Shown here: piece by piece, positions 5,777 through 42,287 of the stretch
How the letters are laid out: every line of letters starts with the position of its first letter
Numbering within the stretch: the stretch's first letter is position 1
Assembly (NCBI GenBank): GCA_003518365.1
Contig: DOYU01000021.1
Coordinates: 492 to 64,491 of the forward strand
Direction of reading: 5' to 3'
DNA from: Candidatus Magasanikiibacteriota bacterium
Lineage (GTDB): Bacteria; Patescibacteriota; Patescibacteriia; Magasanikbacterales; UBA922
DNA: 64,000 bases
Program-made: the position numbers and the translations under genes
Notes under the pieces: generated by a model
Database searches by the model: none
The model's input: the letters and a program-made list of their open reading frames with translations, nothing else
What the model was told of the DNA's origin: nothing

Positions 5777-6274
5777 CTAGTACAGGTAGCGCACCACCTC
5801 GAACGTCTCAATTGCGCCTGGTTGCGGCGCAATCGGGACGAACGCCGAGATGTGCACGCCACCTTCCAGCCCGTCGACTTGGAAGACGTAGTCTTCCGTG
5901 TCCATGGTGAGGAACGCCCCACCGTAGACACCACCGTCGCCGGTGACGCCGAAGACCTCGATCTCGAAGATCATTCCGGCGTAGACCTGTACGGGGATCT
6001 CGCCGACGAACTCGTACTCGAACAGCGCGATGTCCGGATCGATGGGATCCCAGACCTGTTGCGCAAAGCCTGCCTCGTCCACCACGGTCAGCCGACAGAC
6101 CGAGATGCACTCGACCCACGCCAAGGGCGGGGTGATGGTCTCATCGCTCGGCGTCGTCGTGTCCACCTGCTCGGGGCAGGCGGCCTGGACGGGCGCGAGG
6201 GTGTCGGAGTCGCAGGCGGCGGCGAGGGTCAGGGTCAGGGTCAGGGCGATGGTGGCGACGAAGAAGCTACGCAT
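5777..6274 (-). CDS. GC-rich predicted lipoprotein, paralog A (divergent)
   Basis: Start at ATG 6274 with GGAGG 6-7 nt upstream. Signal peptide plus lipobox: MRSFFVATIALTLTLTLAAAC. A sampled line is 62% GC. No recognisable family. Confidence 0.6.
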   Translation of the reverse strand: MRSFFVATIALTLTLTLAAACDSDTLAPVQAACPEQVDTTTPSDETITPPLAWVECISVCRLTVVDEAGFAQQVWDPIDPDIALFEYEFVGEIPVQVYAGMIFEIEVFGVTGDGGVYGGAFLTMDTEDYVFQVDGLEGGVHISAFVPIAPQPGAIETFEVVRYLY

Positions 6275-6423
6275 CGGAATCCTCCGGTGATGCGGTCTCA
6301 CGATGTACTTTACTACAGCATTTCTGCAGCAAGCACGATCGAATGAACCGCACCACCAACATGTTCTCTTGCATTGTAAAAAGCATGTCAAAAGAGGTAC
6401 TTGTGTCCTATTTTGAACGGCTG

Positions 6424-6452
6424 AATATAACATAAAAACACACTTTTGTCAA
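6424..6452 (-). promoter_or_regulatory. Candidate promoter for lipoprotein A (TTGACA-17-TATATT)
   Basis: On the reverse strand, TTGACA (6452-6447), a 17-nt spacer, then TATATT (6429-6424). Confidence 0.45.
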
Positions 6453-6461
6453 GTGTATAAC

Positions 6462-6553
6462 TAAAAAAATTGCCTTATGTTAGCAATTTTCTTCTTTTTT
6501 AGAAGTTTGCAAACAGTCGACGCAGCGCACTCCGAAGAGCGCGCCGCGTCGAC
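6462..6553 (-). terminator. Compound 3' element of lipoprotein B: GC hairpin with a CTC-TTCG-GAG apex, then an AT hairpin with a T-run
   Basis: GTCGACGC...GCGCGCTCTTCGGAGTGCGC...GCGTCGAC (6516-6553), followed on the reverse strand by AATTGC...GCAATT and TTTTTTT (6462-6489). The same architecture is repeated after lipoprotein C. Confidence 0.55.
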
Positions 6554-6565
6554 CGCGAAGAAAGA

Positions 6566-7099
6566 TCAGATGCCGTCTTGCCATCCGGGGTCGTAGACCA
6601 CTTGAATGGTGTACCTGCTCCCAGGTGTCCAGTCGTAGATGGGAAATCTCAGCTTTGGTGAGGTCTCGACACCATCATTGACTCGCAGGAGAAATTTGAA
6701 CATGAGGTTGTGGGACACGAGTTCGAGTGTCACACCGCCATTCATAGGGGGCGCGACCATCAGCTCGACCTCGATCTCTGCACCTTCAAGGAGCTGAAAA
6801 TCGAAGATCTCGTTACTCGCGAGATACTCATCGAGCGTAGGTCCCTCTTCATCACTCACATAGTACTCTCCATGAAAGAACCAAATGGGAGCGACCTCCC
6901 CATCCGGCAGGGTGACCGTCACCTTCCACACACCATTGGCCCAGAGAGAAGCGAAGGCTCCTTCTCCACCATAATGAAAGGTGATGCTTGGCTCAGAGGA
7001 ATCTTCCTCCTGCGGAATTTCCACATCTGGAAGGATGGTGGTGTCACAGCCGCCAGAGCTGTAGACGAAACCGAACAGAGCGAGAAAGATAAGTGCGTG
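6566..7099 (-). CDS. GC-rich predicted lipoprotein, paralog B
   Basis: Start at ATG 7099 (MHALIFLALFGFVYSSGGC, lipobox Cys) with GAGGT upstream. Clearly paralogous to 7377..7895: LDEYLASNEIFDFQLLEGAEIEVELMVAPPMNGG versus LDGYLAENEFLDFELTEGQTIHVELIESPPENGA. Confidence 0.65.
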   Translation of the reverse strand, partial: HALIFLALFGFVYSSGGCDTTILPDVEIPQEEDSSEPSITFHYGGEGAFASLWANGVWKVTVTLPDGEVAPIWFFHGEYYVSDEEGPTLDEYLASNEIFDFQLLEGAEIEVELMVAPPMNGGVTLELVSHNLMFKFLLRVNDGVETSPKLRFPIYDWTPGSRYTIQVVYDPGWQDGI

Positions 7100-20856: not shown

Positions 20857-20954
20857 AGCGAGTATGAATAGTATATCACAAAAATTATTCTGCTCACATG
20901 GCGAGTCTTGATTTTTTCGTGTATATTGAGTATTATAGCGAAGCAAAAAAAGAT

Positions 20955-20983
20955 GGGCTTGTCCTGCCTTTCGCGAAAGGCGG
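20955..20983 (+). repeat. Left copy of the direct repeat flanking the GIY-YIG gene (contains hairpin CCTGCCTTTCGCGAAAGGCGG)
   Basis: GGGCTTGTCCTGCCTTTCGCGAAAGGCGG. The near-identical copy at 21322-21351 differs by a G/T substitution at the first base and one extra C. It is followed by a second hairpin, TCCCTCCCTTC-acg-GAAGGGAGGGA (20989-21014). Confidence 0.7.
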
Positions 20984-21047
20984 AGCGCGTCCCTCCCTTC
21001 ACGAAGGGAGGGATATATCGTATAGTGTGTATCAAACAGGAGGGGCT

Positions 21048-21296
21048 ATGTTCTATACCTACCTATTGCAAAGTACAAAGGACAACAATTTTTATATTGG
21101 ATCAACGACGGATTTAAAAAGAAGATTCACCGAACATAACGATGGGAAAGTTTCTTCAACAAAATTTCGTCGTCCAATGAAATTGGTATATTACGAAGCC
21201 TATCCAGAAGAACATCTGGCACGAGTACGCGAACAAAAATTAAAAGATTTTGGTTCAGCATACACAGCACTATTAAAAAGATTAGGGTATAAATAA
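21048..21296 (+). CDS. Small GIY-YIG nuclease family protein (UPF0213/YhbQ-like)
   Basis: MFYTYLLQSTKDNNFYIGSTTDLKRRFTEHN carries the GIY..YIG and R..H motifs. ATG 21048 is preceded by AGGAGGGG. Confidence 0.85.
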   Translation: MFYTYLLQSTKDNNFYIGSTTDLKRRFTEHNDGKVSSTKFRRPMKLVYYEAYPEEHLARVREQKLKDFGSAYTALLKRLGYK

Positions 21297-21411: not shown

Positions 21412-21482
21412 GGGCGCATCGTATAGTGGTAGTACATTGGTCTCCAAAACCAATTGCGTGGGTTCGATTCCTACTGCGCCTG
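21412..21482 (+). tRNA. tRNA-Trp (anticodon CCA)
   Basis: Folded by hand into a cloverleaf: acceptor GGGCGCA/TGCGCCT, anticodon stem TTGGT/ACCAA, loop CTCCAAA, T-arm GTGGG-TTCGATT-CCTAC. CCA is not encoded. Confidence 0.9.
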
Positions 21483-21538
21483 CACTGGAAAACATACCAA
21501 AAATAAGGTATGTTTTTATAGATAATAGAATAAACGAT

Positions 21539-22176: not shown

Positions 22177-22827
22177 ATGTATAGAAAAGGAGAAGTCATA
22201 GGTGTCGGGAATGACAAACGCATATATGCTGACGCAATAACTCCTGAGACAAGAGTTATTGCTGAATTTCGCAAGGAACAAACACCTGAAGAAATAAAGA
22301 GTGTGTACTATCTTGGGAACATAGCTCATATATTATTCCCTCAAAATGTACCCAAAGTATATGAAGCAGGGATGCATCCACAAGAACATACGAAAGTAGA
22401 AAGAAAAAAGGTGGATGTCAATCATAAAAATACGGCTGATCTCATGGTGACATACGAAGATTATTTCATGGGAGATGGTGAAACGGGACCTTCTTCAGAA
22501 GAAGATAGTGAGATGGATGTAGATATAGAAAAAAAAGAAACCGATCCAAGAGTAAAACAACTTTTAACAAAAGCGTCTTCTGTCGGATTATATTTTGATA
22601 CAGGCGGACAAAATTTTTCTTTTGACGATTTGGGTACTGTCCAATATCTTGAAGTGAATCCAGCATTTCATATAGAAAAAAACCACGTCCGTTTGCACTT
22701 CAACGAAAGCAAATTAAGAGATGCCATACAAGCATTAGAAAATGAAAAAGAGAAAAAAAAGGCTACACTATATTTCGAACGATTGATGTCTTTGATCCAA
22801 GTAGCACAAAATAATCTTATACAATAG
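22177..22827 (+). CDS. Hypothetical protein; possible atypical kinase-like fold (YrbL-like); weak
   Basis: Glycine-rich loop-like VIGVGNDKRIY near the N-terminus and LYFDTGGQNFSF resembling a kinase catalytic loop, read by eye only. Very AT-rich. Confidence 0.45.
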   Translation: MYRKGEVIGVGNDKRIYADAITPETRVIAEFRKEQTPEEIKSVYYLGNIAHILFPQNVPKVYEAGMHPQEHTKVERKKVDVNHKNTADLMVTYEDYFMGDGETGPSSEEDSEMDVDIEKKETDPRVKQLLTKASSVGLYFDTGGQNFSFDDLGTVQYLEVNPAFHIEKNHVRLHFNESKLRDAIQALENEKEKKKATLYFERLMSLIQVAQNNLIQ

Positions 22828-22913
22828 TTCCAACTTCCTCCTTCCTCTACGATCCCCTGCACCTCCTGCAGTAGCTCCTGCCGGCAGGCAGGTTAGCGAA
22901 GGCACGGCACTTG

Positions 22914-22948
22914 AAAAACAGAGTGAAAAACACTCTGTTTTTCTTTTT
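22914..22948 (+). terminator. Intrinsic terminator
   Basis: AAACAGAGTG-aaaaa-CACTCTGTTT followed by a T-rich run. Confidence 0.65.
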
Positions 22949-23002
22949 GACATGAAGGGAAGAACGGAGTATTGTACAAGTAAACATATACATTATATTG
23001 GT

Positions 23003-23212
23003 ATGGCTCATCAAAAAAATACAATCGGAAAAAACATCAAACGATTACGGCAAGAACAAAAAATTTCCCAAGATCGTCTTTCAAAACTTGCGGATCTTTC
23101 TTTGAATACTATTGTTACCGTTGAAAGTGGCGCAAACGAAAATCCTACTATTGATACGCTCACAAGGATTGCGAAAGCGTTTCAAGTTGGCGTGGATGAC
23201 CTCATAACATAA
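23003..23212 (+). CDS. XRE-family helix-turn-helix transcriptional regulator (69 aa)
   Basis: IGKNIKRLRQEQKISQDRLSKLADLSLNTIVTVESG is a canonical HTH_3. Start set at ATG 23003. Confidence 0.85.
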   Translation: MAHQKNTIGKNIKRLRQEQKISQDRLSKLADLSLNTIVTVESGANENPTIDTLTRIAKAFQVGVDDLIT

Positions 23213-23220
23213 CACCCACT

Positions 23221-24198
23221 ATGTCTAAACAAACACCTACCAATAATCTCGCTATCTACCAAGCTAAAAACGGCGCGATTGAATTTCGCGGTGATTTTGA
23301 GCAAGAGACGGTTTGGGGAAATTTAAATCAAATTGCCGATCTTTTTGGTCGCGACAAGTCCGTTGTTTCCCGCCATATAAAAAACATCTATAAAACAGGC
23401 GAATTAAACGAAACGGCAACTGTTGCAAAAATTGCAACAGTTCAAAAGGAAGGAAGGAGAGAAGTGATGCGTGAAATTGAGTACTTCAACCTTGATGTTA
23501 TTTTGTCCGTTGGGTACAGAGTAGATTCCAAGCAAGCCACGCAATTCCGCAAATGGTCAACGCAAGCGCTCAAGGCACACCTTGTAGACGGGTATACCAT
23601 CAACAAAAAACGCATCGGTAATAACTACGAACACTTTTTGCGTGCAGTGGCAGAAACAAAAGCACTCCTCCCTGTGGGCAACAAGGTTTCTACCGAGGAT
23701 ATACTTGAACTCGTGAACGCATTTGCTGCTACGTGGTTTTCGCTCGATGCATATGACAAAGACGCATTTCCTCAAAAAACAGCCTCAAAAAAGTCAGTTT
23801 CAGTTGACACTGTAAAGCTACTCAATGCGATTGGTGAGTTGAAGCAAGAACTGATAACCAAAAAGCAAGCAACAAACCTATTTGCACAAGAAAGGAAGAC
23901 GGGAACAGTAGAAGGAATCGTCGGAAATGTATTTCAGTCTGCCTTTGGCAAAGATGTATATCCAAGTATAGAAGAAAAGGCCGCACACATCCTCTACTTC
24001 ATGGTAAAAAATCATCCATTCACCGATGGCAACAAGCGCAGCGGAGCCTTTGCATTTGTTTGGTTTCTACGAAAAGCTGGTTTACTCCGACCAAGTCTTA
24101 CTCCAGAAGCGTTGACTGCCATTACCCTCCTCATTGCAGAGAGTAATCCAAAAGATAAAGACAAAATGGTGGGACTAGTGGTGATGTTAATCAAATAA
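23221..24198 (+). CDS. RhuM-family N-terminal domain fused to a Fic/Doc domain
   Basis: N-terminus: QIADLFGRDKSVVSRHIKNI ... YFNLDVILSVGYRVDSKQATQFRKW, the RhuM family pattern. C-terminus: HPFTDGNKRSGAF, which matches the Doc-type core HxFx[DN][GA]NKR. Confidence 0.8.
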   Translation: MSKQTPTNNLAIYQAKNGAIEFRGDFEQETVWGNLNQIADLFGRDKSVVSRHIKNIYKTGELNETATVAKIATVQKEGRREVMREIEYFNLDVILSVGYRVDSKQATQFRKWSTQALKAHLVDGYTINKKRIGNNYEHFLRAVAETKALLPVGNKVSTEDILELVNAFAATWFSLDAYDKDAFPQKTASKKSVSVDTVKLLNAIGELKQELITKKQATNLFAQERKTGTVEGIVGNVFQSAFGKDVYPSIEEKAAHILYFMVKNHPFTDGNKRSGAFAFVWFLRKAGLLRPSLTPEALTAITLLIAESNPKDKDKMVGLVVMLIK

Positions 24199-24200
24199 CT

Positions 24201-25322
24201 ATGGCAAATAAAAACCTTACAAAAGCAAAAAAGGCAAAAAATGATGAATTTTATACTCAATTTTCAGATATTCAAAAAGAAGTTGAGTCTTATCTTGAGT
24301 ATAACCCAGATACTTTTAAAGATAAGATAATTTACAGTAATTGTGACGACCCGTTCGAAAGTAATTTCTTTCGCTATTTTGTATTAAATTTTGATCGTTT
24401 AGGACTAAAGAGACTTATTTCAACGAGCTACAAACCCTCACCTGTTGCCAATACGCAACTGGGATTATTTGGCGATGACAAAACACTTGAAAAAGTAAAA
24501 GGCCGTCCAAAAGTAACCGCTAACAAATTCATCATCAACGAAGTTGGCGATATCGACGGCGACGGCTCTTTTACGCTAGAAGATATTGCCCAACAGCTTC
24601 GAGCGAATAAAAATAACGAATGGACTCCGCTTGAGGGCGATGGTGATTTTAGAAGTGCCGAATGTGTCGAGTTGCTCAAACAATCTGACATCGTAGTTAC
24701 TAATCCTCCATTTAGTTTATTCCGTGAATATATTACGCAACTTTTCGAACACAAAAAGCAATTTCTAATTATTGGTAGCATGAACTCAATTACTTACAAA
24801 GAAATCTTTGTGTTGATTAAAAATAATAAATTGTGGTTAGGTAATGGGTTTAATGCTGGCAATGCATATTTTTCAACTCCCAATGCGCGAAAAGATTTTG
24901 CTTCTGGTGTGTATGATGAAAAAACTGGTCTTGTAAAATTTCGGAATTGTCATTGGTTTACTAATTTAGATCATGGTCGTCGTCATCAGCCTCTTAATCT
25001 GATGACAACAAATGAAAACCTAAGATTTAATAAAAAAATGCAAGGCAAAACTACTTATGATCGTTATGACAATTATGACGCTATTGATGTACCATTTACA
25101 AAAGCTATCCCTTCTGACTACGAAGGAGTAATGGGTGTTCCTATAAGCTTTCTCGATAAGTACAATCCTAATCAGTTTGAGATATTGGGCTCTGACACAG
25201 ACATAAAAGAAGGTAAACTTCCACTTTTAATAATAAGTAAATGGAATGGAAAGCTAGACAGAGGTTATATACATGGAAAGAGAATCTTCAGTAGAATGTT
25301 TATTAAGCACAAAAAGAAATAA
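24201..25322 (+). CDS. N6-adenine DNA methyltransferase, EcoRI-methylase family
   Basis: N-terminal [16 protein letters not shown]...[18 protein letters not shown] and catalytic motif [12 protein letters not shown]. It begins 2 nt after the previous stop codon. Confidence 0.8.
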
Positions 25323-25323
25323 T

Positions 25324-26487
25324 ATGAAAACAACCTTAAAAAATGATATCACCGTTAAAGAAGTTTGCGACGGCTTTGAATACAACGAATTTGAAGGAAA
25401 AGGTTTGTTTGGTCTCTCTGGCAAACTAACTATTCAGCCAGAGTATCAGCGTAATTATATTTATGCTGACGGCAAACGTGACGTTGCTGTAATTGACTCA
25501 ATTTTAAAGGGTTATCCTATCGGTTTGATCTATTTCAATCAGGCTGGTAAAGACGAGTTTGAAGTATTAGATGGTCAACAGCGCATCACGAGTATAGGTC
25601 GTTTTGTTACTGGCAAATTTGCTGTTAAAGATAAAAACGGTCACGAGCAATACTACAGCGGTATGTCTGAGAGTCAGCGTGAGCAAATTATGAAGACTAA
25701 GTTGTTGGTGTATGTGTGCGAAGGTGACGAGCCTGAGATCAAAGATTGGTTCAAGACTATTAACATTGCTGGAGTGCCATTAACTGAACAAGAGATTCTT
25801 AACGCGGTATATTCTGGGCCATTCGTTACTCGAGCTCGTGAAGAGTTTAGTAATAGTCAAAATACCAACATCCAGAAATGGAGTGCGTACATCGCAGGTG
25901 ATATCAAGCGTCAGGCATACTTGGAACGAGCTCTAGATTGGGTTTCTGATGGATCAATCGATAGTTATATGAGCAAACACCGCAATGACAAAAATATTAC
26001 TGAACTAAAAAAACATTTTGATACTATCATTGACTGGGTCTCAACTATCTTTACTGACGTTGAGAGCGATATGAAAGGCCTTGAGTGGAACAGGATTTAT
26101 GAGACATATCACAAGAAGAAATACAATCCGACTACCATCTCTGCTTCTGTTCAGAAGCTCTATGCTGATGGTTTCGTAAAAAGTCGCAAAGGCATTTTTG
26201 AATATGTTTTAGGCGGAGAAGTTGAAACTAAACTACTTGAAATACGAGTATTTGAGGACTCAACAAAACGTTCAGTTTACGAAGCTCAAACTGCTATTGC
26301 AAAGAAAAAAGGTGTTTCAAACTGTCCACATTGTGCTATTGGGCATGATGCCAATAAAGAAAAAATTTGGACTTTAAGCGATATGGATGCTGATCATGTG
26401 GCTGCTTGGAGTAAAGGTGGAAAAACGGAAGCAAAAAACTGTGAGATGTTGTGTAAAACGCATAATCGTGCCAAAGGTAATCGGTAA
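25324..26487 (+). CDS. DUF262 (ParB/GmrS-like NTPase) fused to an HNH endonuclease
   Basis: N-terminus: IQPEYQRNY ... [10 protein letters not shown], the DUF262 hallmark. C-terminus: CPHCAIG...[12 protein letters not shown]...[15 protein letters not shown], the HNH motif. Start set at ATG 25324, 1 nt after the methyltransferase stop codon. Confidence 0.8.
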
Positions 26488-26493
26488 AATATT

Positions 26494-27987
26494 ATGCACC
26501 TCACAAAAACCGACTATCTCGAATATACCTTTTGCAAAAAGAACCTTTGGCTCAAAAAACATAAGCCAGAGCTTTTTGAAGATGTAGAATTGTCGGAATT
26601 TGAAAAAAAAATTATTGAGGAAGGGAATTTGGCTGATGAGGCTGCAAGAAATTTATTTCCTGATGGAGAATTGATCGGTATCGTCGGAGTAAATGCTATA
26701 CCTGTTACAAAAAAGATACTGGAGAAAAACCCACCAGTATTATTTCAAGGTGCATTTTCATTCAATGACTTTTTTGTTCAAGCGGATATTTTACGTTACA
26801 ACGACATTTTAAAGGGTTGGGAACTTTACGAAGTAAAAGCAACAAATGATGTAAAACGAGAAATCCCTCATCACCATATCAACGACCTTGCGTTTCAAAA
26901 AATTGTAATTGAACAAAATGGGATACACATTATAAAAGCAGGCGTTATTCACCTTAACGGCGAATATAGACAACGAGGCAAAGTAAACTATAACGAACTG
27001 TTCATCATTGCCGAGCTTACTGATGAAGTACTAGAAGCGGAAGAACTTGTACGTGGGCAGATGCGTGATATTCACACATATATGGACATGGCAGAAGAAA
27101 AAAATTGTGAATGTTTGTATCGAGGTAGAAATGCACAATGTACAACGTTCGCTTACTCTAATCCTGAAGTGCCTGAATACTCTGTTCACGATATCAATAG
27201 AATTGGCGGAAGCAAAAAACTGTTTTTTGACTGGATAGATAGAGGGATCTACCGGCTCGAAGATATAGATAACCCAGAAAATCTTACAGGATCAAAAAAG
27301 GCACAATATACTGCGTACATAACAGGTAAGCCTCTCATAGACAAAGAAGCAATACAAAAAGAACTTGGTGAATTGGTTTTTCCTCTCCAATTTTTTGATT
27401 ACGAAGGATATTCTAGTGCTATCCCCAGCTTTAACGGCTTCGGTGCGTATGAACAAGTGCCTTTTCAATATTCACTACATACGCTCCATGAAGACGGAAC
27501 GCTTGAACACCGAGAATATCTCATCACAGAGCCAGAGAATGATTTGACTTTGCCATTGGTAGAAAGAATGAAAGAAGACTTTGATGATGTTGGTACTGTC
27601 ATATCTTGGTACAAATCATACGAATCACAACGAAACGACAAACTAGCAGAACTTCATCCAAATCATGCAGACTTTCTTATTGGCCTCAATGACAGAATGT
27701 TTGACCTCATGACAATGTTTTCCAAAAATTATTATGTGGATGCACGGTTCAAAGGGAGTGCAAGCATAAAAAATGTTCTGCCGGTCATTGTACCGGAATT
27801 AACGTACAAAGTACTTGGTATTCAAAAAGGAGATCAAGCAGTAGAACGTTGGGAAAAAATGATATTTGCAGATATTCATCCAGATGAAAAGAAAGAAATA
27901 AAAAAAGATTTGCTTGAGTATTGCAAATTGGATACTTTGGCGATGGTGAGGATTTGGGAGTTTCTAATGAAAATAAAAAATGTATGA
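26494..27987 (+). CDS. DUF2779 family protein (N-terminal PD-(D/E)xK/Cas4-like nuclease, C-terminal DUF2779)
   Basis: MHLTKTDYLEYTFCKKNLWLKKHKPE...FPDG, ELYEVKA (ExK), and FFDYEGYSSAIPSFNGFGAYEQVPFQYSLH, the DUF2779 hallmark. Confidence 0.75.
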   Translation: MHLTKTDYLEYTFCKKNLWLKKHKPELFEDVELSEFEKKIIEEGNLADEAARNLFPDGELIGIVGVNAIPVTKKILEKNPPVLFQGAFSFNDFFVQADILRYNDILKGWELYEVKATNDVKREIPHHHINDLAFQKIVIEQNGIHIIKAGVIHLNGEYRQRGKVNYNELFIIAELTDEVLEAEELVRGQMRDIHTYMDMAEEKNCECLYRGRNAQCTTFAYSNPEVPEYSVHDINRIGGSKKLFFDWIDRGIYRLEDIDNPENLTGSKKAQYTAYITGKPLIDKEAIQKELGELVFPLQFFDYEGYSSAIPSFNGFGAYEQVPFQYSLHTLHEDGTLEHREYLITEPENDLTLPLVERMKEDFDDVGTVISWYKSYESQRNDKLAELHPNHADFLIGLNDRMFDLMTMFSKNYYVDARFKGSASIKNVLPVIVPELTYKVLGIQKGDQAVERWEKMIFADIHPDEKKEIKKDLLEYCKLDTLAMVRIWEFLMKIKNV

Positions 27988-29219
27988 ATATGCACAGCCC
28001 TCTTTCTTCAATTCAACAACTACAATCAATATTAAGTAGTCCTTCGAAAAAAATCGGATTCCTTTTTGGGGCTGGAATTTCAATGGAAAAAAAAGATAAG
28101 AGTGATTTGGTGGTAGGAACTGATGACAAAAAAGATGAGAACGGTAATGTAATAAAAGAAGGAATGACAAGTCTCGCAATTAAAAATTTATCAGAGGAAC
28201 AAAAAAAAGCTGTAGATTTAATAAAGAATGAGGTTGAAACAGAAAATAAAAAATTTAACATCGAAAGTCTCTTATCAAAAATTTCTGAAAAAGAAAGAGC
28301 TGTTGGCGATCAAGAGCTTTGTGGTTTAACAAAAGAAAAATTATTAAATTTGAGAAAGGATATACAGGATAAAATAAGAGATTTGGTTTCCGTACATAGG
28401 GTGGATGATAAAGAAATTGATATTGAGGCATTAAATCACAGCACATTTGCTCAATGGATTAGTAATGCTGATAGAGAATTCTCAGTAGAAATTTTTACAA
28501 CAAATTACGATTATCTACTAGAACTAGCACTTGAAAAACAAGGAATTCCCTATTTCGATGGTTTTGTGGGTAGTTATGAAGCATTTTTTTGCCCTGAATG
28601 GATTGAAGATGACACGCCTGTCAAAAATTGGGTAAAGCTATGGAAATTACATGGTTCACTTGGTTGGGCACAGAATAGTAAAAAAGAAATAATTAGAACA
28701 TCTGGTAATACCGGTGCGGCGATGATATACCCTTCATTTTTGAAATATGACCATTCCAAAAAACAGCCATACTTGAGCTATATGGATAGATTGTCCGATT
28801 TTTTAAAGCAAGAAGATTCTGTCTTATTTGTTTGTGGTTATTCATTTGGAGATGAACATATAAATGAAATAATTTTGACAGCACTTACGCACTCTCGCTC
28901 ATCACATGTATTTGTGTTGAAAAATGGAGAAATGGAAAAATCTAGCCATCTTTCAAAAGAAATTGCACAAAAAAATTCTAGAATTTCAGTTTATGCAAAA
29001 CGTACCTGTATTATTGGAGGTAAATTTGGAGAATGGAAGCTCGATAGAGAACCAGACAGAAATGAATCCTACAACATATTAGATTATGCTTTTGATGAAG
29101 ACGCTACACCTGATGGAGTACCATGGACAGGAAGAGGTGATTTTCGTCTTGGAGACTTTAAAAAATTTACGGAGTTTTTAGAGCTTTTCTACCATAATTC
29201 GAGATATATCAATAAATGA
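27984..29219 (+). CDS. SIR2-like (SIR2_2) NAD-binding defence protein
   Basis: IGFLFGAGIS, FTTNYDYLLE, KLHGS and CGYSFGDEHIN. The start ATG 27984 overlaps the DUF2779 stop codon (ATGA). Confidence 0.8.
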   Translation: MNMHSPLSSIQQLQSILSSPSKKIGFLFGAGISMEKKDKSDLVVGTDDKKDENGNVIKEGMTSLAIKNLSEEQKKAVDLIKNEVETENKKFNIESLLSKISEKERAVGDQELCGLTKEKLLNLRKDIQDKIRDLVSVHRVDDKEIDIEALNHSTFAQWISNADREFSVEIFTTNYDYLLELALEKQGIPYFDGFVGSYEAFFCPEWIEDDTPVKNWVKLWKLHGSLGWAQNSKKEIIRTSGNTGAAMIYPSFLKYDHSKKQPYLSYMDRLSDFLKQEDSVLFVCGYSFGDEHINEIILTALTHSRSSHVFVLKNGEMEKSSHLSKEIAQKNSRISVYAKRTCIIGGKFGEWKLDREPDRNESYNILDYAFDEDATPDGVPWTGRGDFRLGDFKKFTEFLELFYHNSRYINK

Positions 29220-29220
29220 C

Positions 29221-30999
29221 ATGAGAAATAAAGAGACATTTATAGGTAAAGTGAGAAGTGTCACAGGTAGTACGCTTGCTATTGAGTTACACGAAGATAT
29301 TAGATCAACGTTACCTATTATTGATGGGATATTATATAGAATTGGACAAATTGGTTCTTTTATAAGAATTCCTTTTGGTTATGTTGATTTATATGGAGTA
29401 ATTACACAAGCTGGATCAGACGCTATACCAGAAAAATTAGCGGAGCAAGAGGGTTTGAAAGGATCTCGCTGGATTAAGGCTACTCTTATTGGAGAAAGGG
29501 TCGGTAATAGATTTGAAAGAGGGGTGTTGCAATTTCCTATTGCTGATGACGAAGTTCATTTGGTCACGAAGGATGATTTGGAATTGATATATGGTGGAAT
29601 TGATGAATCAAAGTCAATAGTAGTTGGACAGGTCAGTGCCTCTGAAAATCTGTCAGCAAGAATAGATATAGACAGATTAATTAATAGACATTGCGCCATA
29701 CTTGGCTCTACAGGAAGTGGAAAATCAAATACAGTTTCTGTAATACTAGAAGCAATTGCTTCTAGACATCATGATGATGAAAATATAAAAAGTACGAGAA
29801 TTCTTTTGGTCGACCCTCATGGTGAGTATGGCGATATTTTAAAAAATTATAGTCAAATATTTAAGTTAGGAGCAGACTTGTCAAAAGGAGAAAAAGAACT
29901 AGTTGTTCCATATTGGGCTTTACCTTTTCAAGAATTTATAAAAAGTTTTCCAGGTAATCTAACTGAAAAGCAGGAAGAGTACATACGTGAAGAAATTCTA
30001 CAAAGAAAGATTAAGGCTTCTAAAAAATTAAATCCTATTCCACAAGAGGAGGCAATTACAGCTGATAGCCCTATCCCTTTCAGTATTAAACAACTATGGT
30101 TTGACCTTATTGATATAGAGCAAAAAACTTTTAATAACAAGGAGTTAACCGAAGTCGCACTCGAATCACTAGGCGATCCTGAGGCACTTAAGCCTAACAA
30201 ATACTCCATAGCGTCAACAAATAATACAGCCCCTTTCAGTAATAACAGGGTTGCGCAGGGTATTTCAAGTTTTTTAAACTTAATGCGGAATAGAATTTTA
30301 GATCAAAGATTTAAGTTTTTATTCAAACTAGACACGCTCTCTCCTGGTATTGACGGAACTATTTCAAGTGATTTAGACAGTCTCATTGAAAGTTGGATTG
30401 GGACAGAGAAACCAATAACTATTTTAGACCTATCGAGTATACCCTCTGAAATCATGGGTTCAATTTCTGGTTCTTTGCTTTCAATAATTTATGAATTTCT
30501 ATATTGGGGACAGAATGAAGATGTGGGAGGTCGCCAAACACCTATTCTGTTTGTACTAGAAGAGGCACATAATTATCTAAAGTCAGGCGAGAATTCTATT
30601 GCCTCAAGAACTGTACAAAAAATTGCAAAAGAGGGTAGAAAATATGGTTCAGGTTTACTACTCGTAACCCAACGACCTTCTGAACTGGATGATACTGTTT
30701 TGAGTCAATGTGGTTCAGTTATCGCGTTGAGAATGACAAATTCTAGCGATAGAGGCCACGTAAAGAGTGCTGTCGAGGATTCCCTAAACGAGTTAGTTGA
30801 TTTGCTTCCGAGCCTAAGAACAGGTGAAGGTTTAATTATGGGTGAATGTGTAAAATTACCTATGCGAACTAAATTTTCTAAAACTAGGGAATCTAAAAGT
30901 ACAGACCCACTTGTTTCTAAGCAGTGGAAAACAACTCTTCCAGAATCCTCTAACTATAATAAAGTTTTAGAAAATTGGAGAAATAATAAATTTTCTTAA
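29221..30999 (+). CDS. HerA-like (DUF87) FtsK/HerA-clade ATPase
   Basis: Walker A ILGSTGSGKSNT, Walker B ILFVLEEAHNYL, GRKYGSGLLLVTQRPSEL. It begins 1 nt after the SIR2 stop codon. Confidence 0.85.
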   Translation: MRNKETFIGKVRSVTGSTLAIELHEDIRSTLPIIDGILYRIGQIGSFIRIPFGYVDLYGVITQAGSDAIPEKLAEQEGLKGSRWIKATLIGERVGNRFERGVLQFPIADDEVHLVTKDDLELIYGGIDESKSIVVGQVSASENLSARIDIDRLINRHCAILGSTGSGKSNTVSVILEAIASRHHDDENIKSTRILLVDPHGEYGDILKNYSQIFKLGADLSKGEKELVVPYWALPFQEFIKSFPGNLTEKQEEYIREEILQRKIKASKKLNPIPQEEAITADSPIPFSIKQLWFDLIDIEQKTFNNKELTEVALESLGDPEALKPNKYSIASTNNTAPFSNNRVAQGISSFLNLMRNRILDQRFKFLFKLDTLSPGIDGTISSDLDSLIESWIGTEKPITILDLSSIPSEIMGSISGSLLSIIYEFLYWGQNEDVGGRQTPILFVLEEAHNYLKSGENSIASRTVQKIAKEGRKYGSGLLLVTQRPSELDDTVLSQCGSVIALRMTNSSDRGHVKSAVEDSLNELVDLLPSLRTGEGLIMGECVKLPMRTKFSKTRESKSTDPLVSKQWKTTLPESSNYNKVLENWRNNKFS

Positions 31000-39571: not shown

Positions 39572-41067
39572 AAAAAATACATACATTTCTCAAAGAACTC
39601 TACGCCATCGATCCAACGCTGAAAGCGCATGAAACAGAACTCATCATACTCCTCACGCGCATGCTCGAACAAAAACCAGACGTACATATCGACGACGCAT
39701 TTGTATCCTCACTTCGAAAACGACTTGTGGGGACACCGGTACCGTCATCACCTTCATTCTTCACGCATCTTTTTATGAACAAACAACCAGCCTTCATTGC
39801 AACAGGTGCAGTCCTCTCGCTCGCGTTGCTCGTGGGTGTCTATCACTATGGCACGACACGTACAGGCATGATCTCAGGAGGCCAATTTGCTTCGATCTTT
39901 TCACCAAATGAGGTCGTCCACAGAAATGCAGGAGCCTTTGGTGTGCTCTCGTCAACAGAAAGCGCTGCCGCACCGACAGCAGAATCAGTCTCCTTTGATA
40001 CCAGTATGCTCAGCAGCCGTATGCCAGCAGATACGGTGGTCGGCATGGGTGGCGATGGCGTGGATGCAAAGATGATGATCGCGCCAGCACCATACCGCTA
40101 CACATACACGTATACTGGCGAGCCGCTCGAGCTCACTGACACCACGCTCCCAGTCTATCGACGCATCGTGCCAACGAATGCATCACAGGCACTCGGTACA
40201 CAACTCAGCAATGTCGGCACAGGTCTTGTCGATTTGTCCTCATTTGGCACACTGCATGCAGAAACGATTTCTATCTATGACAACGAATATCGTATCACTA
40301 TCGATATTGCCAATGGGCAAGCAAGTATTTATGAAAATTACGACAATCGACAGGACATCTATCGTGAAGCCACAGAAGCAGACATGTTGCCAGAACAACA
40401 ATTGATCGACATCGCAGATGCATTTTTACGCGCACACAATATCAGCACAGCGGGTTATGGCACACCAGTCGTAGATATGCAGTGGAAAACAGTGCAAGCA
40501 AAGCAAGAAACTGCTGATGCAGCATACCAGACGTATATTCCAAATATCATCACGATCATCTATCCATTCCAGCTCGAAGATCATACTGCGCATGACTATA
40601 GCGGATTGCCAGAGGGCATGCGTGTGAATGTCGACATCTTCACAAAAAAAGTAAATAATGTCTCAAATCTCATGGCAGGAGGATTTGAAGCATCAGACTA
40701 CGATGTGACGACAGACAGTAGCCGCGTGATCTCACTTGCAGAGCAAGGTGGACTCAACATGTATCCATGGTATGCAGAAGAGTCAGAAGAACGAATCCTC
40801 GAGCTCGGCACGCCAACGCTCGTCTATATCCAGCACTACTTGCCACAGGAAGGCAATGCACGTTCGTACGAAGTGTTTATCCCTGCACTCCAATTCCCTG
40901 TACAAAATATCCCAACAGATGAACCATTCTACAGCTCACGCATTATCACGATCCCGCTGGTCACCAATATTCTCGATGAAGAAAGAGACCGCCCGATCCC
41001 TACAGAACCACCGATCCTCCTGATGAAAGATGGTGCAGAGCCGGCAGTGGAACCTGCGGTAAGATAA
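39568..41067 (+). CDS. Single-pass membrane protein, putative anti-sigma partner or extracytoplasmic sensor
   Basis: Overlaps the sigma gene by ATGA. Cytoplasmic N-terminus, one TM segment (PAFIATGAVLSLALLVGVYHY), and a roughly 400-aa external domain with no recognisable family. Confidence 0.55.
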   Translation: MKKIHTFLKELYAIDPTLKAHETELIILLTRMLEQKPDVHIDDAFVSSLRKRLVGTPVPSSPSFFTHLFMNKQPAFIATGAVLSLALLVGVYHYGTTRTGMISGGQFASIFSPNEVVHRNAGAFGVLSSTESAAAPTAESVSFDTSMLSSRMPADTVVGMGGDGVDAKMMIAPAPYRYTYTYTGEPLELTDTTLPVYRRIVPTNASQALGTQLSNVGTGLVDLSSFGTLHAETISIYDNEYRITIDIANGQASIYENYDNRQDIYREATEADMLPEQQLIDIADAFLRAHNISTAGYGTPVVDMQWKTVQAKQETADAAYQTYIPNIITIIYPFQLEDHTAHDYSGLPEGMRVNVDIFTKKVNNVSNLMAGGFEASDYDVTTDSSRVISLAEQGGLNMYPWYAEESEERILELGTPTLVYIQHYLPQEGNARSYEVFIPALQFPVQNIPTDEPFYSSRIITIPLVTNILDEERDRPIPTEPPILLMKDGAEPAVEPAVR

Positions 41068-41082
41068 CAATTTATTTCAACA

Positions 41083-41160
41083 AAAAAGCCACTCACTTCC
41101 CCCCTGTACTGATGCTGAGAATCTCAGAAGCAATACAGGATGTGTGAGTGGCTTTTGTTG
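41083..41160. terminator. Long nested hairpin between convergent genes (bidirectional terminator candidate)
   Basis: AAAAGCCACTCAC (41085-41097) pairs with GTGAGTGGCTTTT (41144-41156). Inner stems are CCTGTA/TACAGG and CTGAGA/TCTCAG. Confidence 0.6.
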
Positions 41161-41210
41161 TACCGCCCACGCATCCCGTTGTCAGGGTTGGGGCGTGGGT
41201 GGAGCAGAGG

Positions 41211-42287
41211 CTACGCGAAGCCACGAACCTTCAGCTCGTGTCGAACCTGGTCTCCTACCAAGATCGGTGGGTAGAGGCTATCAATCGCAGCCAGGTGGTC
41301 CTCATTGAGGCCTTCCAAGAACATCGGTAATGGGCGAAGCATGTGATCCGATCGGAAATGAACAAAGAATGTGGACGACACACTGACCAACGGCCATCCC
41401 TCTTGTTCGGAATACTCCATCGCTTTAATGGTCTCTGGTAGGGAGACAACCTCGCTGAAGCTTGCCAAAAGCTTACCCCCGGTAAGCCACTCGAGCTGCT
41501 GTCCGACCTGCACGAGGAGCCAGCCATCAGGCACACAAACCTTCTTCGGCTGTCCGTCGGGGCCCCAGATAATGAGCCCTGGAAACCGAGACTTGCCGTG
41601 GATCGTCAATGCGTTCAAATCCGTATTGAAGGCATTGATGATCGTGTCCTTCTTGCCATGTTCTCGAAGGTTCACACCACTCGGAACCAGGAGATGTGGG
41701 GCTTTTTTCAACAAACGAGAGAAGGTATCACGTTTGAGCCCCTGTGCCAGCGCAAGCATTTCACAGACCGTACGAGCGGTCTCCAGCATCTTCTCTCCCA
41801 ATGCGTCCATCGTGCTGGCCCACTCATTCTTGAATCCGCTCGGGATTACCCGATCAGCGGCGTTCTGCACAGGAAAGGCGGTGGACGCCGGACGCTCACC
41901 AATAGGCCAGGAAAAACGCTCTCCCGGATCTCCCTTACAGTTGCAGGGCGTCACATAAGGGCGATATTCAGGCGGCATGCGGGCGATGAAACCACGATAA
42001 TCAGGAGGGCGCTCAATGTACGGTGGAGAAACTCCCACATGATAGCCCAGATCCGGTCGTTGATCATGGACCCGATCTTTGTAGGGGTTGCCGAAGTAAT
42101 CCTCAAGCATGTTCAGGTATCTTTCGTTGTCACTCGGCAAAATCCGCGGATCGCGCACAAAAACTGCTGAGTGCTGCTTCAACGATTTGAAGAGTCTCCT
42201 GGCCTGCGACATGTCGTGTTTCAATCCCTTCCTGCCTACAAATGTGGACAAGTGGACATATGGAATACCCAACGCCCCGTATCGCAT
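41211..42287 (-). CDS. 2OG-Fe(II) oxygenase superfamily-like protein (IPNS/DIOX_N-like), GC-rich; metal-binding residues appear substituted
   Basis: ATG 42287 is preceded by GAGGTG. N-terminus is IPYVHLS-like. The core LTIHG..FPGLIIW...DGWLLVQVGQQLEWLTGGKL aligns by eye to the jelly-roll consensus (HxD..GLQV....N.Gd.le.wTNg...S..HRV), but it reads NTD and SEV where HxD and HRV are expected. Confidence 0.45.
   Translation of the reverse strand: MRYGALGIPYVHLSTFVGRKGLKHDMSQARRLFKSLKQHSAVFVRDPRILPSDNERYLNMLEDYFGNPYKDRVHDQRPDLGYHVGVSPPYIERPPDYRGFIARMPPEYRPYVTPCNCKGDPGERFSWPIGERPASTAFPVQNAADRVIPSGFKNEWASTMDALGEKMLETARTVCEMLALAQGLKRDTFSRLLKKAPHLLVPSGVNLREHGKKDTIINAFNTDLNALTIHGKSRFPGLIIWGPDGQPKKVCVPDGWLLVQVGQQLEWLTGGKLLASFSEVVSLPETIKAMEYSEQEGWPLVSVSSTFFVHFRSDHMLRPLPMFLEGLNEDHLAAIDSLYPPILVGDQVRHELKVRGFA

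Follow-up and report, generated by a model that had tools for sequence, protein, structure and literature searches.

An EcoRI-family methylase with exchangeable cassettes and a DUF262-HNH nuclease: a likely restriction-modification pair found across bacteria, plasmids and a phage

The DNA described here is a stretch of 64,000 nucleotides, called the window, from a Candidatus Magasanikiibacteriota bacterium (assembly GCA_003518365.1, contig DOYU01000021.1, positions 492 to 64,491). It holds two adjacent genes. One encodes a DNA methylase of the EcoRI family, the other a nuclease that joins a DUF262 domain to an HNH domain. It is slightly better than an even bet (about 0.55) that the two form a single mobile restriction-modification (R-M) module, in which specificity comes from the methylase, while a sequence-agnostic nuclease, gated by nucleoside triphosphate (NTP), acts as the effector. 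The parts of the pair, in window positions, are these:

24201 to 25322, plus strand: methylase (EcoRI-family N6-adenine), matched by PF13651 over its full length
24201 to 24845, plus strand: catalytic half of the methylase, residues 1-215, with DEFYTQ at 24243-24260 and NPPF at 24702-24713
24846 to 24953, plus strand: V1 cassette of the methylase, residues ~216-251, type 1 in the window, flanked by the invariant W212/G214 and W252
25191 to 25295, plus strand: V2 cassette of the methylase, residues ~331-365, type 3 in the window, the site of most length variation
25324 to 26487, plus strand: nuclease (restriction component, DUF262 plus McrA-type HNH), 387 amino acids (aa), from Pfam and homologue alignment
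25324 to 25818, plus strand: DUF262 ParB/Srx-like NTPase domain of the nuclease, residues ~1-165, with DGQQR at 25570-25584
25819 to 26313, plus strand: helical middle region of the nuclease, residues ~166-330
26314 to 26484, plus strand: McrA/Cas9-type HNH of the nuclease with four cysteines, residues ~331-387, with DH at 26392-26397

The methylase open reading frame (ORF) encodes 373 aa and closes with a TAA stop at 25320-25322. It is matched by Pfam EcoRI_methylase (PF13651) at E=3e-127 and 425 bits, where the cut-off is 26.4, over profile positions 1-345 of 345, and also full length by the PADLOC model MTase_II (PDLC03297, E=2.8e-106). Its motifs DEFYTQ (residues 15-20), CDDP (48-51) and TNPPFSLF (167-174) are invariant or nearly so in homologues; TNPPFSLF and DEFYTQ are identical in at least 97% of 80 of them. 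The catalytic motif IV, (N/D)PP(F/Y), and the N-terminal DEFYT are thus both there. No relative in the PDB was found by sequence, nor by a search with a methylase profile.

The nuclease gene has its ATG at 25324, after a single T at 25323. The longest ORF in this frame opens earlier, at 25273 (404 aa), but when 86 homologues are aligned, their conserved N-terminus falls on MKTT; 25324 is therefore taken as the real start. Pfam finds GmrSD_N/DUF262 at residues 36-163 (E=1e-22) and HNH PF01844 at residues 344-387 (E=2e-5). Essentially invariant in the homologues are P39/Q42/R43, D83-G84-Q85-Q86-R87, C334/C337, D357-H358, N372, C377 and N381, and the HNH carries four cysteines (334, 337, 373, 377). 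The PADLOC model REase_II (PDLC03418) matches residues 6-386 to profile positions 5-371 of 372, at E=1.5e-88.

An AlphaFold2 model of the nuclease (mean predicted local distance difference test, pLDDT, 84.5) has a ParB/Srx-like N-terminal domain, a helical middle and a beta-beta-alpha C-terminus. The C-terminal domain matches EcoKMcrA (6.8), the GVE2 HNH (6.8) and the HNH domains of Cas9, and Foldseek concurs. The nearest solved structure is BrxU; by sequence, no relative in the PDB was found.

A preliminary description, made from the sequence alone, had recognised much of this. The methylase family and its two motifs, the single nucleotide between the genes (the stop ends at 25322) and the union of DUF262, with DGQQR, and HNH in one 387-aa protein are all borne out. 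Its remark that DUF262 is normally joined to DUF1524, as in GmrSD, BrxU and SspE, agrees with the literature; in the window nuclease the DUF1524 family (PF07510, GmrSD_C) gave no match, and the C-terminus is HNH PF01844. It had also seen no EcoRI-like endonuclease gene nearby, and indeed none of the nine neighbouring ORFs scanned with Pfam matches an EcoRI-type endonuclease family.

The pairing was followed through 80 related loci, which are the best matches to the window nuclease in a scan of one genome per species, and which are mostly from Patescibacteria. The methylase lies upstream on the same strand in 77 of the 77 loci where this could be evaluated; the remaining three have less than 1.6 kb of DNA upstream of the nuclease. 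In 52 of the 77, the distance from methylase stop to nuclease start is -4 to +11 nucleotides. The order also holds further out. In a clade of 361-aa nucleases, 40-44% identical to that of the window (Kangiella and a metagenomic contig), a PF13651 gene precedes with a 4-nucleotide overlap, and both of these pairs sit inside integrase or resolvase elements. Three relatives at 35-36% nuclease identity have the same order. Look-ups begun from the methylase similarly found the nuclease immediately downstream in three out of three cases, in places as a bare two-gene insert, for example between transporter genes. The pairing is not due to chance; it is an obligate synteny.

The family is large and widely spread. 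At an E-value of at most 1e-30 it comprises at least 449 clusters at 50% identity, and three homologue searches each gave at least 8,000 candidates. Carriers are found among Patescibacteria, Bacillota, Actinomycetota, Pseudomonadota and Bacteroidota, on plasmids and in one phage. The nucleases of the window (whose closest relatives are Patescibacteria), Moraxella and Enterococcus are 61-67% identical to each other. Plasmids with the pair span four phyla, and come from Moraxella, Enterococcus faecium, lactobacilli, Arthrobacter, Rhodococcus, Dietzia, Gordonia and Phocaeicola. The cultured Flavobacterium phage vB_FspS_laban6-1 carries it as gp07-gp08 (locus L098, 2281-4643), with a nuclease 69% identical to that of the window. 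In this phage the pair is oriented opposite to the flanking tail and hypothetical genes.

The preliminary description had suggested counting how often the two genes occur together. That count came out in favour of an R-M reading, where the nuclease belongs with its partner methylase: the pair is kept in every evaluable locus, down to nuclease identities of 35-40%, and on plasmids and a phage.

In 25 of the 77 loci, co-directional genes of 0.6-3.1 kb are nested between methylase and nuclease. They include RhuM, DUF2130, T5orf172/MUG113, Bro-N, AbiU2-HEPN and Fic genes. RhuM-like genes stand between the two in eight related loci; loci listed with defence-type genes in this place are L035, L041, L044, L053, L067, L068 and L072. 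A NUMOD4/HNH_3 gene is nested likewise in the locus of a more distant relative (L096). Such passengers recall defence genes that have been called 'embedded' in other systems.

One plasmid of Chryseobacterium taklimakanense (NZ_CP034172; L081, 3068-3885) has methylase matches in two reading frames, upstream of an intact nuclease. The methylase is absent from the plasmid's gene table, and may be a frameshifted pseudogene beside a nuclease that is still intact.

The methylase is a mosaic. When the 80 methylase-nuclease pairs are aligned, the catalytic half of the methylase is 83-91% identical where the nuclease is 85-93% identical. V1 and V2, on the other hand, are unrelated sequences swapped between invariant anchors. 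Clustering the 80 methylases gives 13 types of V1 and 21 types of V2, in 48 combinations. Even among the 25 loci where the nuclease is at least 85% identical to that of the window, there are 8 types of V1 and 10 of V2, in 15 combinations. The aligned nucleases have no cassettes of this kind, and their length is 387-389 aa in 69 of the 80 loci, while the methylases range from 350 to 413 aa.

Across pairs of loci, the identity of the nuclease correlates with that of the catalytic half at r=0.80, of the segment between the cassettes at 0.60, of V1 at 0.19 and of V2 at 0.11. With the catalytic half controlled for, the partial correlations are 0.06 for V1 and 0.00 for V2. The cassettes are shuffled independently of the nuclease, and the nuclease is co-inherited with the core of the methylase. 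It was considered whether the nuclease is odd in being more conserved than the methylase. This was rejected: the cassettes explain the gap, and the catalytic half is about equally conserved.

A genuine EcoRI-type system on plasmid CP067830, whose endonuclease gene (277 aa) precedes its methylase gene (325 aa), provides a comparison. Its methylase has a V1 with 76% identity to V1 type 2, where the catalytic halves are 52-57% identical, and its V2 matches V2 type 14 at 62%. From such patterns the cassette types look like conserved functional alleles, and V1 and V2 are proposed to be the target-recognition elements of the methylase. The window's own cassettes are only 29% (V1) and 21% (V2) identical to those on CP067830, against 58% for the N-terminal half. 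GAATTC should therefore not be assumed to be the target of the window methylase.

Within the nuclease family, one cluster consists of a longer protein of 688 aa, represented by two members that differ in sequence and lie on two contigs. Its Pfam domains are EcoRI_methylase, GmrSD_N and HNH, in other words both partners fused:

L093, 8001 to 10067: fusion ORF, 688 aa, on a contig with a G+C content (GC) of 33.5%

The fusion is a single reading frame, in which TGA codons occur only at conserved tryptophans; because of this coincidence, the organism is taken to read TGA as tryptophan. In the methylase part, NPPF has become FPSF, DEFYT has become NLFAS, CDDP has become AGDG, and a deletion has removed the GDGDF region. 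The nuclease part keeps its DUF262 and HNH motifs. Upstream are FtsX-domain and ATP-binding cassette (ABC) transporter genes, and downstream is an apparent surface protein. A methylase fold that is retained without its catalytic motifs, and fused to the nuclease, suggests that it serves the nuclease in some way other than by methylation. DNA binding is the obvious candidate for this role.

Around the pair, the window holds these further features:

21412 to 21483, plus strand: tRNA-Trp gene, at the left edge of a low-GC stretch
22913 to 22943, plus strand: terminator-like hairpin, a 13-bp stem then a T run, which closes the upstream unit and opens the co-directional array
22947 to 22975, plus strand: promoter-like site TTGACA-17-TATTGT directly before the HTH gene, a consensus match only
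22952 to 23212, plus strand: XRE-type helix-turn-helix (HTH) gene, Pfam HTH_3 E=2.6e-11, PADLOC Control_protein E=1.4e-8
23221 to 24198, plus strand: RhuM-Fic/DOC fusion, Virulence_RhuM E=6e-23, Fic E=1.6e-12, PADLOC PDC-S23 E=6.6e-112
26494 to 27987, plus strand: Cas4-like/DUF2779 protein of 497 aa, with a weak Cas4-like N-terminus (PADLOC E=2e-5) and a C-terminal DUF2779 (E=1e-34)
27987 to 30999, plus strand: SIR2-HerA anti-phage pair, PADLOC SIR2 E=1.8e-107 and HerA E=2.1e-150 (the SIR2 ORF is listed from 27921, overlapping the preceding gene; 27987 is used here)

The pair lies in a stretch from ~21 to 33 kb whose GC is 0.32-0.42; the rest of the window typically has 0.43-0.47. The stretch has the look of a genomic island; a search of the window for an integrase and for att-like direct repeats of the tRNA-Trp gene found neither. 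From the hairpin and promoter-like site onwards, seven genes of the plus strand follow one another in the same direction: HTH, RhuM-Fic, methylase, nuclease, DUF2779 and SIR2-HerA. The site at 22947-22975 is a candidate promoter for this operon, in a region where promoter-like sites are no more numerous than in shuffled sequence, which makes it weak evidence.

The true start of the HTH gene is probably an internal ATG at 23003 (M18), because alignments with homologues open at residues 14-23. Homologues of this gene are found upstream of the methylase in 10 other related loci, within about 10 nucleotides in several. The HTH protein is probably a controller of the module, similar to C proteins; in the window no C-box was identified, and the RhuM-Fic gene separates it from the methylase. 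The RhuM-Fic gene is a passenger here and not part of the core of the pair. SIR2, HerA and DUF2779 are likewise regarded as neighbours and not as parts, because each accompanies the pair in only 2 of the 80 loci.

A 216-aa ORF inside the island (22177-22827, plus strand) has no significant family match in Pfam, PADLOC or NCBIfam. An ORF with a GIY-YIG domain (20898-21296, plus strand, E=3e-16) stands just before the tRNA-Trp gene. Elsewhere, the window bins 6001-7000 and 41001-42000 have a GC of 0.54, well above the rest; a scan with Rfam found no ribosomal RNA or other RNA family in these bins.

It is very probable that the two genes are a true R-M pair. NTP gating of the nuclease is reasonably likely, and the odds that the nuclease is agnostic to sequence are about even. 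We infer that methylation protects, that the nuclease depends on NTP, that the cassettes act in specificity and that the nuclease does not read sequence. In the proposed mechanism, the methylase would mark host DNA with N6-methyladenine (m6A), and V1 and V2 would determine the sites. The ParB/Srx pocket of the nuclease, with its DGQQR, would bind and hydrolyse nucleotide as a switch, as it does in BrxU and SspE. This switch would then license the zinc-bound HNH to cut DNA without the m6A mark. The nuclease is most likely not the sequence reader, because it is conserved and without cassettes while its partner's cassettes change freely.

This could work in two ways. The methylase may recruit the nuclease to unmethylated sites, much as in Mod/Res, with the ParB-fold switch replacing the helicase motor. 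Alternatively, the nuclease may sense m6A irrespective of the sequence around it, following a logic like that of SspE. The dead-methylase fusion favours recruitment, the sub-mechanism that resembles Type III. Tentatively, one might go further and regard the pair as a separate class of R-M, where the methylase is the sole reader of sequence, through two exchangeable cassettes, and recruits or licenses an HNH nuclease with a ParB-fold switch. It could then, just as tentatively, be seen as a helicase-free counterpart of Type III, whose specificity is reprogrammed by exchanging cassettes with the nuclease left untouched.

Other explanations fit part of the data. The pair could be a classical type II system, in which the DUF262-HNH protein reads a fixed sequence itself, probably with a recognition surface in its unannotated helical middle, where all partner methylases share that site and where DUF262 is there only for dimerisation or regulation. 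Both proteins match PADLOC type II models, the methylase is stand-alone and of the same family as M.EcoRI, whose endonuclease is independent, the ~165 unassigned helical residues could bind DNA, and a fixed specificity does predict a highly conserved nuclease. It would however require 48 combinations of non-homologous V1 and V2 to keep one and the same specificity, although the cassettes are conserved like functional alleles (76% for V1 against ~55% for the catalytic half). Type II enzymes do not feature an invariant NTPase motif, and the dead-methylase fusion is left unexplained. On balance this reading, the main rival, is unlikely, and it is kept under consideration because the effect of the cassettes on specificity is something we infer. 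A third possibility, raised in the preliminary description, is a type IV enzyme: a GmrSD-like, modification-dependent nuclease next to an unrelated orphan methyltransferase. DUF262 is best known from the modification-dependent GmrSD and BrxU, the latter is the nearest solved structure, and the locus is in a defence island. The co-occurrence in 77 of 77 loci and in distant relatives nevertheless effectively refutes this idea, and leaves it very improbable. The methylase is present throughout the family, its stop codon often overlapping the start codon of the nuclease, the nuclease co-varies with its catalytic half (r=0.80), and the C-terminal domain is an HNH instead of DUF1524. A nuclease attacking the product of its obligate partner would moreover be lethal.

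The pair may finally be a selfish cassette for addiction or mobility, kept for its own spread by post-segregational killing or HNH-driven homing, and not for defence. This would suit a compact two-gene insert found in many unrelated genomes, plasmids and one phage, adjoining resolvases, integrases and insertion sequence (IS) elements, with a nuclease identity of 61-67% that is unusually high across phyla. Such a life is compatible with defence, given that type II R-M systems do both. The window pair shares its surroundings with SIR2-HerA and other defence genes, further defence-type genes nest inside the operon, and no homing-site or intein/intron context is seen, all of which makes a purely selfish role improbable.

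A number of observations nonetheless weigh against the module proposed here. Its PADLOC class is plain type II, and M.EcoRI works as an independent monomer beside an unrelated endonuclease. The variation in V1 and V2 could be of a kind tolerated at the protein surface, or the cassettes could be what anti-restriction pressure acts on. A few specificity residues in the nuclease could also covary with the cassettes and leave overall identity unmoved; choosing the 80 loci by best nuclease match in itself narrows the range of nuclease identities. The fusion is found in one lineage, with a TGA-as-tryptophan genome, and no methylase is present among the genes called around it on L093. Because it is a single lineage with no partner methylase visible on the contig, the fusion may be a derived or decaying form. 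Lastly, neither the window nor 873 kb of pooled loci shows a palindrome that is conspicuously avoided.

GAATTC occurs 18 times in the window where 16.3 are expected, and its observed/expected ratio in the pooled loci is 0.82, as for many hexamers. Grouping the loci by type of V1 or V2 gave generic site biases only, and no target sequence. For Kangiella aquimarina, a literature search for a methylome yielded only an unrelated Type III motif. Separately, GGCC is strongly under-represented in the window (63 observed against 113 expected, z=-4.7), with a ratio of 0.67 in the pooled related loci. This deficit is a possible hint of restriction pressure of the HaeIII type in these lineages.

If the methylase alone sets the specificity, a very common and compact two-gene module would work by a logic that is undescribed for type II. 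The known roles of the ParB/Srx switch would then extend from modification-dependent enzymes to classical self/non-self R-M. The natural library of V1 and V2 could in that case supply new m6A specificities, as well as programmable nucleases that follow them. If the pair is ordinary type II instead, it is one more member of a catalogued family, in a defence island.

The pair as such is not new to annotation software. Standard defence annotators would call the locus type II R-M, because PDLC03418 and PDLC03297 both match full length. A comparison of both proteins with hidden Markov models, as the preliminary description had advised, leads to these same type II models. That text had presented a methylase paired with a DUF262-HNH fusion instead of a conventional restriction enzyme. 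As a description of the gene pair this stands; as a new kind of locus it does not, since REase_II matches from end to end. It also understates the data, as the nuclease appears not to read sequence itself.

The PADLOC type II models are presumably derived from REBASE; the seeding enzyme was not found, the PADLOC papers being without provenance. NCBIfam has no model that names either protein, and the names in the source records are generic ('DUF262 domain-containing', 'HNH endonuclease family', 'GmrSD restriction endonuclease domain-containing'). A literature search did not find a DUF262-HNH nuclease with an EcoRI-family methylase described. The family is thus already catalogued; what is unreported is the combination of methylase cassettes, a constant NTPase-HNH nuclease and the dead-methylase fusion, a pattern which suggests that the two proteins split their tasks otherwise than in classical type II.

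Reviews list DUF262 in GmrSD, BrxU, SspE, Menshen, Dazbog and PD-T4-2, and a 2025 survey names ParB-fold/HNH fusions only as novel and uncharacterised. Menshen (NsnA) and PD-T4-2 were rejected as the family of the nuclease, as their PADLOC matches arise through the shared DUF262 only and are far weaker than that of REase_II. Dazbog was similarly rejected, as PADLOC gives no DzbA match.

Compared to the type II systems behind the PADLOC models MTase_II and REase_II, the pair is alike in having separate genes for methylase and nuclease, in being small and mobile, and in sometimes having an HTH controller upstream. A classical type II enzyme recognises its site by itself and works without NTP. 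The window nuclease differs in its invariant ParB/Srx NTPase motif, and in staying constant despite the putative recognition cassettes of its partner. The EcoRI system itself, as found on plasmid CP067830, shares the Pfam family and catalytic motifs of the methylase, but there the endonuclease gene comes first, and its 277-aa product is unrelated.

GmrSD and BrxU have the N-terminal DUF262 with DGQQR in common with the window nuclease. They combine DUF262 with DUF1524, whereas the window nuclease ends in a zinc-bound HNH PF01844 and is ~200 residues shorter. GmrSD also acts alone on modified DNA, while a nuclease of the window type always comes with a methylase gene. BrxU has to bind and hydrolyse nucleotide, by way of RLFDS and DGQQR, before it can cut, and the changes Q101A and R102A abolish defence.

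In SspE, the arginine of DGQQR is essential for the hydrolysis of GTP, which couples recognition of the phosphorothioate mark to nicking. The SspABCD-SspE system has this phosphorothioate mark, which four proteins make, where the window pair would have m6A, made by one methylase. The nuclease domain of SspE, which nicks DNA, is DUF1524, and that of the window nuclease is HNH. No ssp genes are present among the neighbours in the window scanned with Pfam, PADLOC and NCBIfam.

Type III systems (Mod and Res) share the order of a modification gene followed by a restriction gene, often with overlapping codons. There too, specificity modules are swapped among methylase alleles while the restriction subunit stays constant, and NTPase and nuclease are in one subunit. 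Res however is an ATPase of the superfamily 2 (SF2) helicase type with a PD-(D/E)XK nuclease, and the window nuclease has only a ParB/Srx fold and HNH. The methylase of the window is similarly no Mod, as it belongs to the gamma-class EcoRI family. The likeness to Type III is one of function, and not of membership.

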